A stretch of DNA of 45,219 nt from positions 1-45,219 of IMG/VR virus record IMGVR_UViG_2740892444_000003; one strand, given 5' to 3'. This stretch comes from a virus (lineage: Duplodnaviria; Heunggongvirae; Uroviricota; Caudoviricetes). The notes under the pieces are model-generated. The model saw only the letters and a list, made by a program, of their open reading frames with translations. It was not told where the DNA came from and did not search any database. Made by a program: the position numbers and the translations under genes. Numbering within the stretch: the first letter of the stretch is position 1; the number at the start of each line of letters is the position of its first letter. Shown here in pieces: positions 1,009 to 41,451 of this stretch.

Positions 1009-1083
1009 GTCCTCTTAGTTAAATGGATATAACGAGCCCCTCCTAAGGGCTAATTGCAGGTTCGATTCCTGCAGGGGACACCA
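1009..1083 (+). tRNA. argW: tRNA-Arg (anticodon CCU), attachment site of the prophage
   Basis: 75-nt sequence GTCCTCTTAGTTAAATGGATATAACGAGCCCCTCCTAAGGGCTAATTGCAGGTTCGATTCCTGCAGGGGACACCA read directly; cloverleaf-compatible with anticodon loop CTCCTAA (CCU), T-arm GGTTCGATTCC and CCA end. Confidence 0.9.
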
Positions 1084-22874: not shown

Positions 22875-24341
22875 TCATTTGAACCATCGTAGCGACCATT
22901 TACGATATCCCCGACCGCCCGCGCTATCTGCCGTAGGCTCGTTCGATATCGGATCTCCGCCTGGCGACTCTGGCGGTTTGTCGCCAAGTTCGCCGATGCC
23001 TGGCGGCGCTTCGTCTTCGGCATTCTCTATGTCCTCGTCGGTAATTGACGCCCCGATGCCGGTTACGTCAGAATTTTCGCGCAAATCGGTCATAGCGGCT
23101 TTCAGTGTCATCAGACCATCACCCAGCGCCGTACTGATTGCGTTGGTAGTGTTTAACGCCACCGTTGAGCGATCGACATCAGACATTTGCCAGAGCGGGT
23201 TAAACTCAAACGTGAAATCGTCCGGCAGCGGCTTACCGAGTTCCGAGCGGTGCATAATGTCCAGTATCCGGCGCATCGGCATCCGTAAGCGGCGCTCCTG
23301 CAATGAGCTCACCCGGTCGTAATAGTTGGCAAGATCTGCATCACCGGTAGAAAATCCTTTCGGGGACTGTCCGAACAACCGCACCAGTGGGATACCAACA
23401 GCGCCACTAATCTGTTCTGCAAACTGTGAAAGGATGTCATCCAGACCACTGAAGCTGTACTGATGGGTTTCGAACTTATCCCGCGAGTCCATGAGCGTCA
23501 TGCCTTCATTGCTCTGGAACTGTCGAATCAGGTCGATATTCTTCAGCAACGCTTCATACGCAGGACCACCAAGTGCGATAAGCTCACGTAGCTTCTCCAC
23601 GCTGTAGGTACGCAGATGCGCCTTGTAGACCAGCTGCGCCGCACCGACAGTAGCGCTGTCGAACGCGGTAAGACGATCCCAGATACGCTCTACAACCGAC
23701 ATTCCCCATTCGTTCTCGGTCATCTTCTGCTGGAATGGCAGCGTCACCCCGTCGAAGCGAATCAGGCGACTGTGATGGATGCGCCAGGCCGGAATGCCCG
23801 TTGCGGTGGTCACCACGTCGTAAAACTCAGGCTTGCCGAGGTCCGGCCCCATCTCTTTAATGCGGCGTGTCAGCACCGGGTTAATCATCCAGCGGTCGAG
23901 CGGGAGAATGCCCTTAAACTTGCCCTCGCCAATGGTTTCGAGTCGCAGCGGGGTCATTGGTGCCTGCCCCTCGATCATGATGAAGCCAACCGCACCGCCA
24001 TAGAGACGAGACCATTTCAGCACGTCATTCAGCGCATCCCAGATTTGCAACTCATCCAGTTGTGATTCGAGAATGCCGCGATCTTTTGCATCAATTTCCG
24101 AAGTGATGCGAATGCCTTTGCGGGTCATATCATCCGGGATAGCATCGACCGCTTCGCCGATAACCCAGGATGAACGATAGGACCATTCCACCAGCATGCG
24201 GTTACGACTGGTGAAATTAGCCCGGTAGGTGGATGCTGAGTGCTGGTTAGGTGTCTGCATTCCCACGCGGGCGACAAAGTTCTCATAGCCATCAGCGGTG
24301 GCCTGTGCCGTTCGCCGCGTGGCTTGTTTGTTTCGTGCCAT
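22875..24341 (-). CDS. Portal protein
   Basis: 488-aa ORF immediately downstream of the terminase large subunit gene with ATGA-type coupling. Confidence 0.65.
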   Translation of the reverse strand: MARNKQATRRTAQATADGYENFVARVGMQTPNQHSASTYRANFTSRNRMLVEWSYRSSWVIGEAVDAIPDDMTRKGIRITSEIDAKDRGILESQLDELQIWDALNDVLKWSRLYGGAVGFIMIEGQAPMTPLRLETIGEGKFKGILPLDRWMINPVLTRRIKEMGPDLGKPEFYDVVTTATGIPAWRIHHSRLIRFDGVTLPFQQKMTENEWGMSVVERIWDRLTAFDSATVGAAQLVYKAHLRTYSVEKLRELIALGGPAYEALLKNIDLIRQFQSNEGMTLMDSRDKFETHQYSFSGLDDILSQFAEQISGAVGIPLVRLFGQSPKGFSTGDADLANYYDRVSSLQERRLRMPMRRILDIMHRSELGKPLPDDFTFEFNPLWQMSDVDRSTVALNTTNAISTALGDGLMTLKAAMTDLRENSDVTGIGASITDEDIENAEDEAPPGIGELGDKPPESPGGDPISNEPTADSAGGRGYRKWSLRWFK

Positions 24342-25963
24342 CAGGCCTGTCTCCCTAGCAGCTCCCAGATATTCAGGGCTGAATTCATTGGCGCATAGTT
24401 GATCATCACCGAGTCGGCAAGGTTTGGCGACCGGGTTCCATCAGGCTGTTTATCAATAACGATTTTTCCCACACCATTAATGGAATAGGTCGGCTGCGAA
24501 AGCTCGATGATGAGTTTATCTTTGAGTGCCATGCTACTGCTGATTGAGATGATTTCGTCCGGGTTGTAAGCCATACCTTCAACCACGGCACGCCAGGTGT
24601 TCTGAAAAAGTTTACGTAACCGCCACCAGCTCTGGGCTTTGGCGTTAGCGAAGAAGTCCTTGTTCAGGCGTGCGGCCTGTCCGTTGTCCCCGCGCACCGC
24701 TTCATCGTCCGGATCAAATACCGCGCCGCTACCACGAAACGGTGTGGCGAGTATTGACGGTCGGCGCGCTGCGTAACGCAGTTCGTTGATGGCGCGCGCA
24801 TCGCCGCGAACGCCAGCACCCAGGCCGTCCTCGTCGAAGCGAAACTCTTCGAGGTTGTCCTGTTCGCAAAAGCCGAAGACCTTCTCAACAGACTGGTAAA
24901 TGTCGCTGCCAACGCCGGACCATTCACGCACGTTCTCCAGAAGGAAGCCGTGACGGGTCGAAAAGGCATTTTTGTCCCGGCCTTCGTCGGCGACGTCCAT
25001 CGCGCCCAGTCGCTTGCCCGTTGGCTGAATACCAAGTTTGATATGCGCGTCGACGGCAGCCTGTACCCAGTCGGACGGGATCAGGACGCCTTCCGCAGAT
25101 GCGCTGTAGTTCAGGTCAAGTTCCTGCGCCACCACCACCGGATTGTCGATTTTCTCGCACTCCCTGCGATACCACTCTTCATCCTTGCGCGGGTCATCTC
25201 GCCAGTGGAACGTGAATACTGGTATTTTTCCGCCGTGGCGCTTCTGAGCGAACGGGTTCGCCATGCCGTTAACTGAACTCAGGTCAATACGGCAACGCGT
25301 CGTTTGTGACAACGCCGCATCAATCAGCAGAGGACGCTGAAGGAATGCAGCCTCATCCACCAGATAAAGCGTGGTACGGTCACCACGTCCGATATTGTCG
25401 CCAGCCTCGCCTTTGATAACCGCGCCAGTATCTGGAAACTCAACGCGCATATACGGCGCATGCTTCTTCTCGTCCCACGAACCACGAAACTCGATGGGCA
25501 GTGTTTCCACGAACTTTCGCGCCTTCCAGAACAGCGCCTTCGGGTCACCGGTGCTGTCGACGTATTCCTCTTTACGGGAGCCGAAACCGATAACCATTTC
25601 TTTGTTGAAGAGACAAAGCGAGCAGGCCAGCCCGATCGCGGTCCAACTGAGCCCCATTTCACGGGATTTTTCGGTAATACCATTCTCCCGATTACCCCAG
25701 CGTTCCATAATCCAGTGGATCCACTCCTCCTGCTTAGGGAAGAGTAAAAACGGAATGGTCACCGGCAGGCCATAATCAATATTACGCGGGTCCGTTGTCA
25801 TGCCCCAGTCGATGATGAACTGAGCCGGATTGGTTCGGTAAAACTGTTTTAGTGCAGGCAATATTTCAGGATTCTGGCGAATGCGCTGTAGGCGTTCCAT
25901 CCGCCATTCAAAAACCATCTGGTAATCAGGATGTTTAAAATCGAAGGGGAATGGTAACGGCAT
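24341..25963 (-). CDS. Terminase large subunit
   Basis: 540-aa ORF following the small terminase gene; size and position. Confidence 0.75.
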
Positions 25964-25965
25964 AC

Positions 25966-26517
25966 TTAGCCCATCATTTTTTTATACGCTTCTGCAGCCT
26001 GCTCCGGCGTTAAGTTGGTAATTTCTGTTCTGACTGGTCCTCCGTCAGCACCAGTCACTTCATTTTTGACGTTGTCTTTAAACGCCTGAACAGAAACATG
26101 ACGCCCGAGCAACTCAAGGTTTTTAACCTTATCAGGCCATTTGATTTTCTTCAGGAGAGCAGCACTATCTGCTGATGCCATCTCGACGACATCCATTCCT
26201 GATAGCGTTGTACGCCACACCTTAGGCCAGTCTTTAATGGGCTTCAGTTCGCCATTGGCAAGCAGAATGTCAAGCACGTCCATCTGATCGATTTCAATAA
26301 GGCGATTAAGTACATATTCTGCATTAATACTAACAAGATCATTGCGTTGCGCTTTCAGTTCGGCGATTCTTAACTTGATGTCAGGTTTTGACAGGTTTTC
26401 GGATGCGGTACGGTTAGCTGTCTTTGCGCTGTACCCCGCCCGAATAGCCGCTTGCGTGGCGTTTAAATCGATGAGGTACTCGCGACAGAACATTTCTTGC
26501 TTGTCGGTGAGTGCCAT
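25966..26517 (-). CDS. Terminase small subunit
   Basis: 183-aa ORF beginning [15 protein letters not shown]...[12 protein letters not shown], an HTH-containing N-terminus typical of small terminase subunits. Confidence 0.7.
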
Positions 26518-26541
26518 AGTTTTCTCTAGAGGATTTCTTTA

Positions 26542-26778
26542 ATGAACTCAAAGCAAATTTTTTACCGAAATACAGGTCATGATAATGAAACTTATATATT
26601 CCTGGACAAATTGGACAATGGCTCCTACCAAGTCAGGGCTGGTCATTCGTCACCTGTGAGCCATTTTGAATGGAAGGGTGATGAAACCATTCAGACAGTG
26701 GAAGAGTTTCTAGGTTCTAACCCATCATATACTGAACGTGTTCATCAACTAATTTCTGAGTTTGAAGCAGAATCGTAA
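26542..26778 (+). CDS. Hypothetical small protein (78 aa) encoded opposite to the late operon
   Basis: ORF with GAGGA RBS 9 nt upstream of ATG; lower GC than flanks; no recognisable family. Confidence 0.35.
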   Translation: MNSKQIFYRNTGHDNETYIFLDKLDNGSYQVRAGHSSPVSHFEWKGDETIQTVEEFLGSNPSYTERVHQLISEFEAES

Positions 26779-27199
26779 TCACCACCCAAGCGACTCAACT
26801 GATATCTAGTTCATCATTACTAGGACTAAAAGTAGATTCCTGACATTGAGAACCTCTTTATCCGCTTGTGGGGATATCAGTTAAGTTATCCCGTGTAGGG
26901 TATAAGCCATTGTCGAGACCACTCATTGAATGGCCTCTGCAATAACCGATGTCTTTCCATCAGTCCGCCACCACAAAGAATCTTTTTTGCCATAAGGCAG
27001 GAGGTTCATCTTTCAGTGGCTGCCAGTGTTATTTCCCCACTTACTGGCTTGGGTTGTTTCGCTGTACTGCCGTTAACTGGTGGCGCACAGATTTAGTTAA
27101 ATCCGTTCTCGCATGATCCAGCTTTTACATACCTGGATTGTGAGGGATGTAAATCACGGTTTCATTATCAAGCCCACCAGTAGATGGGCTTTGTAATGG

Positions 27200-27457
27200 C
27201 TACTTCGCTTTTGCTTCCGCTCGCTTACGCCGGCGCTCTTCTTTCCTCTCGGCTTTTGCCATGTCCATGAATGCCTGCATGATCGAGTTACGCATCATGT
27301 AGCTAACAAAGTGATGATTGACACAGCCGTTGAGGCGCAGCTGCTCGCCAAACTCATCCACCGAGGCCAATGCTTCCATCATGCCCTTCTCGCCTTTCAT
27401 GAACTCTGAGAAGTCGCGCCCCGCTCTGGAGGCGCATTCAATAACACGATCACTCAT
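27200..27457 (-). CDS. Hypothetical protein (85 aa) with basic C-terminus
   Basis: ORF coupled to the upstream KilA-N gene (start overlaps its stop); C-terminal KEERRRKRAEAKAK. Confidence 0.45.
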   Translation of the reverse strand: MSDRVIECASRAGRDFSEFMKGEKGMMEALASVDEFGEQLRLNGCVNHHFVSYMMRNSIMQAFMDMAKAERKEERRRKRAEAKAK

Positions 27458-27951
27458 CCCGGAAGCCCGGGGATCGTAATCTGCAGCTGGTTAGCCAGGG
27501 AGTTAATCTCAGCGACCAACACTGGCTTCGTATAGCGCCATGCTGCCAGCCCTTGTCCGCAGAAGCTCGCCATGTCTTTCTTCTGGTCAAACTCATGACA
27601 TTTCATGTTGAGCTGCGCACTTAAGCTGTTGCGATGCTGAAGTTCTCCGGTGAAGTAGTCATCGAGGACTTTATAGGCCGCGTACTTGAACCCGGGGTTT
27701 AACCAAGCCGCATAATCGTAAGCAACAAACTTCCCGCCATATGTTCCACCGTGTACACCGCGCTCAGTAAAAACCACAGATTCGTGGTTTTTCTCCAGCT
27801 CGGCTAAGAACTCTTTGGTCTGCTTGTTTCGCAGGTAGTGGTACGGAGATTCAGATTCACTTTTACCACTGGCTTTCCACATATCAGTGAGGCAGATCAT
27901 TCCTGATTCATCAACACGGATCGGTGTATTAAAAAGCGTGATTGCTTTCAT
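27454..27951 (-). CDS. KilA-N domain protein
   Basis: 166-aa ORF (ATG at 27951; track ORF extends to 27987) with sequence pattern recognised as a KilA-N DNA-binding domain. Confidence 0.5.
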   Translation of the reverse strand: MKAITLFNTPIRVDESGMICLTDMWKASGKSESESPYHYLRNKQTKEFLAELEKNHESVVFTERGVHGGTYGGKFVAYDYAAWLNPGFKYAAYKVLDDYFTGELQHRNSLSAQLNMKCHEFDQKKDMASFCGQGLAAWRYTKPVLVAEINSLANQLQITIPGLPG

Positions 27952-28093
27952 AGCGTCTTTACCTTTTAGAAAGTGAGCCTGTCTCACAGAAAAGCCGCCC
28001 GAGAGAGGTCGCCACCTATAACGGCATTTCTCAGGCTCGCTTACTGAAAGGCTCTCGTTAATATGCGCGTGAGATGCGCGTTTACTGCGGACA

Positions 28094-28151: not shown

Positions 28152-28589
28152 TTATTTCAGGCACTGAGTCCTGATGTACTCCTGCAGGTAGTTAACCTGC
28201 GCGGTTATCCTGTCGATTCCACTTCGGAGACGGTAATAATTGAGTTCAGCATCTGCTGTAAGTCTTGGGCTTTCTCCATCGCCCATGCTGCTGGCTCCGG
28301 CCGTTGACTTTGCACAGGTGGCGGCGACTTGCAGGCGCTTACGACCAGCAGAAACATCAGCACGGAGACTTTCGATAGTAGCGTTAGCATCAGCAAGCTC
28401 CTTTGTGTATCTGGCGTCAAGTTCTGCTACATCACGTTGACGCTTCTGCATATCAGCGATGATGGACGTGGCTTTATCGCGCTGTTCTTTATAGGCGATG
28501 GCGTTATCACGGTAATGATTAACAGCCCATGACAGGCAGACGATGATGCAAATAACCAGAGCGGAGATAATCGCGGTTACTCTGCTCAT
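28152..28589 (-). CDS. Rz: Rz i-spanin
   Basis: 145-aa ORF with N-terminal TM helix and coiled-coil body, overlapping the endolysin stop; lambda-like. Confidence 0.8.
28205..28390 (-). CDS. Rz1: Rz1 o-spanin lipoprotein embedded in Rz (+1 frame)
   Basis: Embedded ORF with signal peptide and lipobox (LLVVSAC) followed by a proline-rich stretch ([13 protein letters not shown]); start at internal ATG chosen. Confidence 0.65.
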
Positions 28590-29062
28590 ACCTCAATCTC
28601 TCTGACCGTTCCGCCAGCCTCTTTGAATTTTGCAATCAGGCTGTCAGCCTTATGCTCGAACTGACCATAACCAGCGCCCGGAAGTGAAGCCCAGATATTG
28701 CTGCAACGGTCAATTGCCTGACGAATATCACCGCGATCAATCATTGGTAAAGCGCCACGCTCTTTAATCTGTTGCAGTGCCACAGCGTCCTGGCTTTTGG
28801 GGGAGAAGTCTTTCAGGCCAAGCTGCTTACGGTAGGCATCCCACCAACGTGAAAGAAGCTGATAGCGACCGGCGGCTGTTGATTTGAGTTTGGGGTTTAG
28901 CGTGACAAGTTTGCGAGGGTGATCTGAGTAATCAGTGAATAGCTCTCCGCCTACAATGACGTCATAACCATGATTTCTGGTTTTCTGACGTCCGTTATCA
29001 GTTCCCTCTGACCATGCCAGCATATCGAGGAACGCCTTACGTTGATTATTGATTCCCACCAT
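28586..29062 (-). CDS. R: Endolysin (lambda R-type lytic transglycosylase)
   Basis: 158-aa protein nearly identical over its length to lambda R as I recall it ([53 protein letters not shown]...). Confidence 0.9.
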
Positions 29063-29369
29063 CTTCTACTCCGGCTTTTTTAGCAGCGAAGCGTTTGATA
29101 AGCGAACCAATCGAGTCAGTACCGATGTAGCCGATGAACACGCTCGTTATATAAGCGAGATTGCTACTTAGTCCGGCGAAGCCGAGAAGGTCACGAATGA
29201 ACCAGGCGATAATGGCGCACATCGTTGCGTCGATTACTGTTTTTGTAAACGCACCACCATTATATCTGCCGCGAAGGTACGCCATTGCAAACGCAAGGAT
29301 TGCCCCGATGCCTTGTTCCTTTGCCGCGAGAATGGCGGCTAACAGGTCATTTTTTTCTGGCATCTTCAT
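29046..29369 (-). CDS. S: Holin (lambda S-type, dual-start MKM motif)
   Basis: 107-aa protein beginning MKMPEK with three TM segments; near-identical to lambda S as recalled. Confidence 0.9.
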
Positions 29370-40317: not shown

Positions 40318-40452
40318 ATGATGCACTTTCAGTTCGCGGGTAGCGGCGTCATGTCCGCTTTCTACCCGCACGAATCTGAATTATCACGCCGAGTTAAACA
40401 ATTAATCAGAGCAGCAAAGAAACAACTGGAGGCGTTATGCGCAATGAAATAG
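40318..40452 (+). CDS. cIII: CIII-like protein (44 aa)
   Basis: PHESELSRRVKQLIRAAKKQL resembles the amphipathic helix of lambda CIII (PSESLLERITRKLRDGWKRL). Confidence 0.5.
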   Translation: MMHFQFAGSGVMSAFYPHESELSRRVKQLIRAAKKQLEALCAMK

Positions 40453-40589
40453 CCATCAATCACCAGGTGCTTCGTGCAGCACAAAACAAAGCAGTAATAG
40501 CCAGATTTATTGGTGATTCCAAAATGTGGCTTGAAGCAAATAAAGCGATGAAATCAGCTATCAACCTTCCATGGTATCGCAGGAAATGA
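40437..40589 (+). CDS. Small hypothetical protein (50 aa)
   Basis: Hand-translated (below the track's 60-aa threshold): GGAGG RBS, ATG 40437, MRNEIAINHQVLRAAQNKAVIARF... Confidence 0.3.
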   Translation: MRNEIAINHQVLRAAQNKAVIARFIGDSKMWLEANKAMKSAINLPWYRRK

Positions 40590-40756
40590 GTTTTACAGAT
40601 AACTGGTCAGACGAAGAATTCATTCGTCAGATGAAAGAATTAATCGGTAACGAAGGAGATATTCATGTTACTTGCAACCACAGTGAAGGAGAGCAAGTTA
40701 CAGAGGCGCATGTACACGCAGCAGGCGTTAATGTATCGCCAGAAGGGAGATCGTGA
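40586..40756 (+). CDS. Small hypothetical protein (56 aa)
   Basis: ATG overlapping the upstream stop (ATGA); track ORF begins at 40571. Confidence 0.3.
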   Translation: MSFTDNWSDEEFIRQMKELIGNEGDIHVTCNHSEGEQVTEAHVHAAGVNVSPEGRS

Positions 40757-40845
40757 AGGTGTTCGCGTATTTTTAAATGCGGCAAAGACTGAAGTATTAA
40801 ATCAGCGTTATTTACTTGGGCCGTGTCCATTCTGAGAACAATCAT

Positions 40846-41451
40846 ATGAGCAAAGAATTTTACGCAAGACTGGCAGCTATTCAGGAGAATCTGAACGCGC
40901 CAAAGAATCAGTACAACTCATTCGGTAAATATAAATACAGAAGCTGCGAAGACATTCTTGAAGGCGTTAAGCCGTTACTGAATGGCCTGTTTTTATCAAT
41001 CAGCGATGAAGTTGTGTTGATTGGTGATCGGTATTACGTGAAAGCCACGGCAACTATTACCGATGGCGAAAACAGTCATACAGCAACCGCTCTTGCACGA
41101 GAGGAAGAAAGCAAGAAAGGAATGGATTCTGCACAAGTTACGGGCGCTACAAGCTCTTATGCACGCAAGTATTGCCTCAATGGTTTGTTCGGCATTGATG
41201 ATGCGAAAGATGCAGATACCGACGAGCATAAACATCAGCAGAACGCAGCAGCAAAGCAATCAAAACCATCACCTACACCTGAACAGGTTCTAAAAGCATT
41301 CACTGACGCAGCAATGCAGAAAAACACCGTAGAAGAGCTTAAACAGGCGTTCGCCAAAGCGTGGAAGATGCTCGAAGGCACACCGGAGCAGCACAAAGCG
41401 CAGGACGTTTACAACATCAGACGAGACGAATTAGAAGGGGCAACTGCTTAA
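40846..41451 (+). CDS. erf: Erf-family single-strand annealing recombinase
   Basis: N-terminus MSKEFYARLAAIQENLNAPKNQYNSFGKYKYRSCEDILEGVKPLL recognised as P22 Erf-like. Confidence 0.75.
   Translation: MSKEFYARLAAIQENLNAPKNQYNSFGKYKYRSCEDILEGVKPLLNGLFLSISDEVVLIGDRYYVKATATITDGENSHTATALAREEESKKGMDSAQVTGATSSYARKYCLNGLFGIDDAKDADTDEHKHQQNAAAKQSKPSPTPEQVLKAFTDAAMQKNTVEELKQAFAKAWKMLEGTPEQHKAQDVYNIRRDELEGATA

Follow-up and report, generated by a model that had tools for sequence, protein, structure and literature searches.

A small antisense gene and a conserved non-coding block between the lysis and packaging genes of a lambdoid prophage

The window analysed here was positions 1–45,219 of IMG/VR record IMGVR_UViG_2740892444_000003 (Caudoviricetes), in which the minus strand carries the late operon of a lambdoid prophage. 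From the list of open reading frames (ORFs) and their Pfam and PHROG assignments, the late transcript was seen to pass through the genes for holin (29046–29369), endolysin (28586–29062), Rz (28152–28589) and a KilA-N/ORF11CD3 protein (27454–27987), and then through an 85-aa gene (27200–27457) that is homologous to hkbL of HK620 (PHROG 875). The interval studied here (26518–27199) follows, and beyond it lie terS (25966–26517) and terL (24341–25963), which encode the small and large terminase subunits; all of these genes are on the minus strand. The product of terS was assigned to Terminase_2 (PF03592, Pfam E = 1.6e-39). A prophage of E. coli C1 (NZ_CP195942) that is 99.8% identical carried the same annotation, the plus-strand ORF of the interval being recorded as a hypothetical protein.

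The interval consists of two unrelated modules, which meet at a recombination joint at approximately 26870/26871. Comparison with 50,697 phage records, using both megablast and blastn, returned matches from position 26871 rightwards only; the segment from 26518 to 26870 matched none of these records. The modules join at what is, on the late strand, the 3' foot of a GGGATA hairpin. Most of the layout that had been described in the sequence-only reading was reproduced: the flanking genes were those of the KilA-N operon and the small terminase gene; the 78-aa ORF was present on the plus strand (26542–26778), beginning with ATG and preceded at a distance of 8 nt by AGAGGA (26528–26533); the stretch thereafter (26779–27199, 421 bp) contained no ORF longer than 56 aa in any frame; and GGGATA (26870–26875) and TATCCC (26886–26891) formed a stem around a 10-nt loop. 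The ORF was also close to and divergent from terS, as had been noted, but the terS start codon is at 26517–26515 on the minus strand and so the gap between the two genes (26518–26541), which includes the ribosome binding site, measured 24 bp rather than 25.

The plus-strand ORF (orf78) is a real protein-coding gene under purifying selection, antisense to the late operon, and was also called by PGAP in the 99.8%-identical E. coli prophage (WP_023565728.1). When orf78 was compared with a homologue of 73% identity (locus L133), the differences were distributed 17, 9 and 41 across the first, second and third codon positions; there were 30 synonymous and 20 non-synonymous codon changes in frame, against between 1 and 9 synonymous changes when the frame was shifted. 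A predominance of third position changes was observed generally among homologues of 65–73% identity. The family is tiny, comprising twelve clusters at 90% identity (65–97% identical) and approximately 10 more distant small proteins, and its conserved motifs are E-x-YIFLD, VR-x-G and EFL...NP-x-Y. At two loci the homologue likewise runs antisense to a late operon: at L133 it is divergent from a Terminase_2 terS, while at L132 it is placed after a lysis cassette, with a terS start about 30 bp upstream. Both of these homologues were preceded by a purine-rich ribosome binding site, different in sequence from that of orf78 but with the same spacing.

Sequence searches of Pfam, PHROGs, PADLOC and the PDB produced no match for the orf78 protein, and neither a profile search of 1.84 billion representatives nor the neighbours of the gene at L132 and L133 gave a clue to its function. 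An AF2 model of the protein (pLDDT 81) displayed a four-strand-plus-helix topology, for which Foldseek reported a marginal resemblance to the PC4, Pur-alpha and Whirly-type fold (E = 0.07, TM approximately 0.46–0.5). There was no match to these proteins at the level of sequence, however, and orf78 is acidic, with a net charge of about -7 as counted from its sequence, which is unlike the surfaces that bind single strands.

The segment in which orf78 resides (26518–26870) was present in 12 of 5,426 complete E. coli genomes, in every case together with the window-type terS. The spacer that separates orf78 from the junction (26779–26870, plus strand), presumed to be the 3' UTR of the gene, was particular to this segment; it had no match in the 50,697 phage records, it accompanied orf78 in all 12 genomes, and the terminator scan recognized no intrinsic terminator within it. 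Among the window, L132 and L133, the non-coding flanks of orf78 (that is, the gap between terS and orf78, and the 3' flank) were not conserved. Base composition also set the gene apart, since its G+C content was 38.8%, compared with 46.6% for terS, 54.5% for terL and 48.9% for the window, making it AT-richer than the neighbouring genes of the operon. In close relatives, the segment was either absent or replaced at the same site. The orf78 region was interpreted as being, most likely, a rare, AT-rich accessory cassette of the moron type that is exchanged horizontally. One further element of the spacer was a 14-nt sequence (26793–26806; inverted repeat I3) that repeats the loop and 3' arm of the adjacent hairpin (26873–26886) in inverted orientation at 13 of 14 positions; the chance of such a repeat is roughly 1 in 500 for this neighbourhood, and it is possibly the footprint of recombination at the joint, or else an alternative pairing.

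The place that this cassette takes is already familiar from P22 and BTP1, where the opposite-strand pid gene is positioned directly beyond the shared block (Cenens et al. 2013, PMC3573128; Wolput et al. 2022, PMC8835761). Homology between the window and P22 stops at P22 position 40368, which corresponds to window position 26887, while the pid moron occupies 40357–40998; therefore, the points of insertion of pid and of the orf78 cassette agree to within about 15 bp. Related phages had no insert, or a different insert, at the pid site. Both pid and orf78 are small ORFans (86 and 78 aa respectively), antisense to the late operon and situated between lysis-accessory and packaging genes. They differ in that pid has a weak promoter, with a mapped transcription start site (TSS) 174 nt upstream and hence a 174-nt leader, and a functional Rho-independent terminator (Wolput et al. 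2022, PMC8835761), whereas a consensus scan found neither a promoter nor a terminator for orf78. This negative scan is weak evidence, because the pid promoter is itself eroded (AATCCT; PMC8835761). The two genes also differ in their distance from the packaging genes, in that only 24 bp lie between orf78 and terS, whereas orf80 and orf59c intervene between pid and gene 3, and the orf78 protein was not assignable to the Pid family, giving no BLASTP alignment with Pid of P22 or BTP1 at E ≤ 100. Another such gene is bor of lambda, which is expressed in lysogens from the strand opposite to the late genes, downstream of Rz. Like orf78, bor is an accessory gene flanked by the lysis genes on one side and by the packaging end of the late operon on the other; however, Bor is a lipoprotein of unrelated sequence, while the acidic orf78 protein has no apparent signal peptide or lipobox.

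Other phages have other occupants in the same region. In Sf6, gene 66 interrupts the shared block, as does its homologue in Huey, while hkbM and hkbN of HK620 come after the block. Cronobacter phage ES2 (locus L144) has a different antisense gene at 1046–1480, encoding 144 aa and annotated as a 'transcriptional regulator', only 20 bp from a terS of 70% identity, which indicates that an antisense gene abutting terS is a recurring arrangement. A phage with a terS of 65% identity has nothing in this position, terS beginning 61 bp after Rz. Against this background, orf78 most likely fills an established moron slot as a gene not described there before, unrelated to either pid or bor. The earlier suggestion of a moron expressed in lysogens was supported in that orf78 is coding, AT-rich, rare, antisense and in the pid slot; since the consensus scan detected neither a promoter nor a terminator, expression of orf78 in lysogens would be argued by analogy. 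A 126-aa gene of PHROG 322 was seen within the conserved block in Sf6 (gene 66, locus L007), in Huey (locus L006, 382–762 and 997–1497) and in phiKp_30. The Huey gene carries a putative annotation as an anti-CRISPR, which hints that this hot spot may gather anti-defence cargo.

The second module (26871–27199, minus strand) is a conserved non-coding block of the late transcript that is shared by many P22-like and HK97-like phages. Its identity was 93–99% to HK620, HK106, Sf6, HK97, HK022, the mEp phages, L/ST64T, P22, BTP1 and a Klebsiella phage. Scanning IMG/VR with a 22-mer from the block identified at least 120 loci, and these were combined with the loci of annotated phages to give 118 unique sequences. 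A core of 129 nt (26947–27075, minus strand), defined by conservation of at least 90% per column among the 118 sequences, was kept in every context. Six types of junction were distinguished downstream of the core and approximately six upstream, several of which were the starts or ends of unrelated genes. The core was present in 1,120 of 5,426 complete E. coli genomes, or about a fifth, and was unannotated among the matches listed. When one genome per species was scanned, it was confined to the Enterobacteriaceae, save for a few contigs with near-identical copies that had been binned in unrelated metagenome-assembled genomes. Divergent homologues, which might have supplied covariation, were sought by distant blastn, by tblastn with the peptide, with the IMG/VR 22-mer and with a degenerate 20-mer across one genome per species, but none was found, these searches returning only near-identical copies or the partial copies of ES18 and S137. 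No RNA annotation of the block existed in the records examined, although the entry for phage L includes an opposite-strand terminator, and the literature searched contained no prior description of the shared block, which does not prove that it is undescribed.

Blocks differed in an insert of around 60 nt, rich in hairpins (27085–27150, minus strand; inverted repeats I5, I7 and I14), that alignments showed to be present in blocks of the window/HK620 type and missing from those of the HK97, L and P22 types. This insert comprises two or three short hairpins (TTTACAT...ATGTAAA, CGGATTTA..TAAATCTG). At the upstream edge of the core, the plus strand reads ACTGGTGG (27076–27083), which is one mismatch from Chi (GCTGGTGG); this site varied among relatives, taking the forms ACTGGTTG and ATTAGTGA.

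The diversity of the neighbours of the block bears on the earlier proposal of a cos or pac site in this region, as far as the hairpin and the conserved part of about 330 bp are concerned. The block adjoins gene 3 of P22, the terminases of HK620 and Sf6, the HNH gene and cos of HK97, the terminase of phiKp_30 and, in the window, Terminase_2. The same DNA therefore stands beside several packaging modules and is not a cos or pac site specific to one terminase; on this comparison of sequences, 26871–27199 was excluded as the packaging site.

Folding showed that the block is more stable, and better paired, when read on the late (minus) strand. The z-score of the fold was -5.6 for the minus strand and -2.7 for the plus strand. 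A consensus structure from an alignment of 75 sequences contained 42 pairs, among them several invariant G-U pairs, and in one of the hairpins there were 39 one-sided changes without a single broken pair. With the terminal hairpin included, canonical pairs filled 99.1% of pair cells on the minus strand but 87.1% on the plus strand; similarly, 16 of 32 variant pair types were kept on the late strand, against 8 of 32 on the other. Directly behind the stop codon of the 85-aa gene, the block opens with a stem-loop (27163–27198, minus strand; inverted repeat I4) whose free energy was -19.9 kcal/mol (z = -4.6) for the minus strand and -16.4 kcal/mol for the plus strand. Its variants TGAGC and TAGGC were still paired on the minus strand only, by means of G-U pairs.

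Read along the late strand, the block closes with the GGGAUA...UAUCCC hairpin (26870–26891, minus strand). This hairpin is weak (approximately -9.4 kcal/mol; U4), and about one 6-bp stem would be expected by chance in 420 bp, so that the stem is not significant in itself; it acquires meaning because it recurs in relatives. TTTTAA followed the stem on the late strand in 72 of the 75 loci that had the hairpin, while CACAAG was found in this position only in the window and in one other locus. In relatives, therefore, the block ends on the late strand much as intrinsic terminators such as tR' of lambda do, with UUUU directly after a stem-loop. It differs from them in the modest proportions of the hairpin, with its 6-bp stem containing 3 G-C pairs, loop of 10 nt and free energy of about -9 kcal/mol, and in the window it differs also in the absence of the U-tract of an intrinsic terminator, the stem there running into CACAAG (minus strand) or GTGTAG (plus strand). 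The loss of the U-tract in the window is attributable to the cassette junction, which falls at the 3' foot of the hairpin.

No compensatory double change was found at any of the 42 pairs in the 75-sequence alignment; few would be expected, since divergence is too low. Among loci that share the 85-aa gene, diversity was 0.033 in the core, compared with 0.047 at third codon positions of that gene and 0.009 at first and second positions combined. The core therefore varies approximately as neutral, third-codon sites do, without excess constraint on its sequence. An initial impression of 'ultra-conservation' was rejected on this ground, diversity being about that of synonymous sites in the adjacent gene, and had been inflated in part by the selection of loci with an exact 22-mer. 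When stems were assigned by folding the window sequence by itself, variable columns were fewer within the stems of the core (3 of 69) than outside them (11 of 63), a difference with p = 0.02, or p = 0.08 when the ascertainment anchor was left out; across the whole block, stems were not depleted of variable columns.

The block is non-coding. Two candidate starts on the minus strand were rejected. The ATG at 26993 (35 aa) belongs to an over-extended N-terminus of orf118 in ST64T and L, and was mutated in 7 sequences; the over-extension is apparent because PHROG 571 aligns only from residue 27. The ATG at 27009 was mutated in 3 sequences, and 37 sequences carried a Leu-to-Gln change in the corresponding frame. 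As regards orf118 of phage L (locus L004, MW013502, 801–1157) and ST64T, the annotated start is probably too far upstream, since an internal Met39 with GGAG fits better; the additional N-terminus corresponds to the conserved non-coding block.

The explanation that we prefer, and to which we assign a probability of roughly 0.55, is that the interval comprises an exchangeable cassette bearing orf78 as a moron, joined to a block that serves as the 3' end, terminator or insulator of a late transcript. Under this explanation, a horizontally exchanged cassette (26518–26870) would fill the slot that separates the shared block from the packaging genes. As pid and bor of lambda suggest by analogy, orf78 would probably be expressed from a weak promoter of its own, independently of late transcription. 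In the late transcript, the block would contribute a strong stem-loop after the 85-aa gene, then the 129-nt core and, in most phages, the terminal GGGAUA...UAUCCC-UUUU hairpin, and these elements together may form the region in which the lysis-accessory segment has its 3' end, terminator or insulator. The tR' terminator of lambda is intrinsic and is read through by Q-modified polymerase; in a comparable manner, ordinary RNA polymerase might stop at the block while Q-modified polymerase would read through it. The block could also provide the shared flank of homology by which cassettes are swapped into the slot, and in the window the cassette was joined exactly at the foot of the hairpin, so removing the U-tract. 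We take as established the two modules with their boundaries, the coding nature of orf78, the non-coding nature and strand bias of the block, its occurrence beside different terminase types and its exclusion as a packaging site; the terminator or insulator role, like the expression of orf78 in lysogens, is what we infer.

Among the alternatives, two would give the block a product of its own. The proposal that the core encodes a small hydrophobic peptide (MAASVISPLTGLGCFAVLP...), translated on the plus strand from GTG 27016, is prompted by a perfect and conserved Shine-Dalgarno sequence (AGGAGG, 26999–27004), and by our own codon assignment three of the most frequent polymorphisms alter third positions without changing the amino acid. 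However, distinct variants were 18 non-synonymous to 7 synonymous, which is approximately the neutral expectation; the frame is shifted by +2 in P22 and by +1 in others; ES18 and S137 have neither the Shine-Dalgarno sequence nor the start, despite possessing the 3' half; and the spacing between Shine-Dalgarno and GTG is 11 nt. We regard the peptide as very improbable. An independent small RNA, transcribed from either strand and acting in trans or, as antisense RNA, regulating the late transcript, is a better prospect than the peptide but still improbable. It would account for the structure of the block, the bounding hairpins could form its 3' ends, a -10-like element (TATAAG, 26901–26906) is found on the plus strand, and the phage L record contains the antisense-strand terminator inside the core. 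Inspection gave no backing for that terminator, which is only a marginal match in the scan and is without a G+C stem directly before a T-run. The covariance-model and promoter searches that had been advised for this region provided no positive support for a small RNA, as no Rfam family reached its gathering threshold and the consensus scan identified no promoter. The only phage-related match was Proteo-phage-1 (RF03044; 27018–27053, minus strand), which scored 16.8 bits against a gathering threshold of 42 (E = 3.7); this family and the core share a 3' tail (GAAAUAACACUGGCAGCC), but the core has neither hairpin of the model and is not a member. AgvB, AsxR, Esr41, STnc100 and other small RNAs are represented by Rfam families, none of which matched the window, while the Pas small RNAs are located between esterase and holin genes, and so elsewhere than the interval. 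In the annotation table of the D23580/BTP1 lysogen, which covers at least 17 RNA-seq conditions, no ncRNA is listed between rha and pid, and no TSS at the homologous position of BTP1. Additionally, different upstream contexts directly abut the core, which leaves no room for a shared promoter.

The two remaining alternatives concern the DNA itself. A pac site for headful packaging might be located close to terS, within approximately 26518–26800, such that orf78 merely overlaps it. The G1P-type pac site of SPP1 is found about the 5' end of terS and immediately before it, and this position, together with the membership of terS in Terminase_2 and the constant association of the cassette with this terS (in 12 of 12 E. 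coli genomes, and in L133 and L132), speaks for such a site. But the non-coding gap and 3' flank of orf78 are not conserved among the window, L132 and L133, the phage with a 65%-identical terS manages without any such region, its terS starting 61 bp after Rz, and variation in orf78 tracks codon positions, as protein constraint would predict. We consider a pac site here quite improbable. The most serious alternative, although in our estimation an unlikely one, is that the block has no function and is ancestral intergenic DNA, which persists through the recent kinship of these phages and recombination between them. Such neutral DNA would be consistent with a core diversity near that of synonymous sites, with the absence of covariation and with the finding of near-identical copies only, and these only in Enterobacteriaceae. 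It is less easily reconciled with the retention of the block across at least six downstream and approximately six upstream contexts while its neighbours were replaced, with the strand-specific excess of pairing and stability, or with the near-constant presence of the hairpin and U-tract. Of the three roles put forward in the sequence-only reading, then, the moron suited orf78 best, while neither a cos/pac site nor a small RNA suited the block.

The core RNA might work as a terminator or insulator conditional on Q, or else as a module of processing or stability, that separates lysis-accessory from packaging genes. The slot between lysis and terminase genes of temperate enterobacterial phages is a home to host-acting cargo, pid and bor being examples. 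Given this cargo and the annotated anti-CRISPR of the Sf6/Huey type, orf78 may reasonably be suspected of modulating the host or countering defences, and might, as a prophage gene, act on the host or against competing phages. We entertain tentatively the fuller proposition that the core and its flanking hairpins are a functional cis-acting RNA of lambdoid late operons and that, separately, orf78 is a new small acidic protein of PC4/Pur-like type. An opposite-strand ORFan in this slot is of a known kind, as with pid and bor, but orf78 is a rare conserved small protein and the block is widespread, occurring both in the E. coli genomes counted above and in model phages (P22, HK97, HK022, HK620 and Sf6) in which it may be tested. 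Were the block to insulate the structural genes from Q-independent transcription, or to guide the exchange of cassettes, this would explain how the hot spot works.

Three observations were made elsewhere in the window. The KilA-N/ORF11CD3 protein (27454–27987, minus strand) matched a PADLOC candidate defence family, PDC-S22, weakly (E = 7e-9) and over its N-terminal 45 residues only. The holin gene is intact in the window (29046–29369, 107 aa) but is a pseudogene with an internal stop in the E. coli C1 prophage (locus L001, 5669–5992). Near the left end of the window there is a tRNA-Arg gene with anticodon CCT (1009–1083, plus strand), which may represent the attachment site or a phage-borne tRNA.
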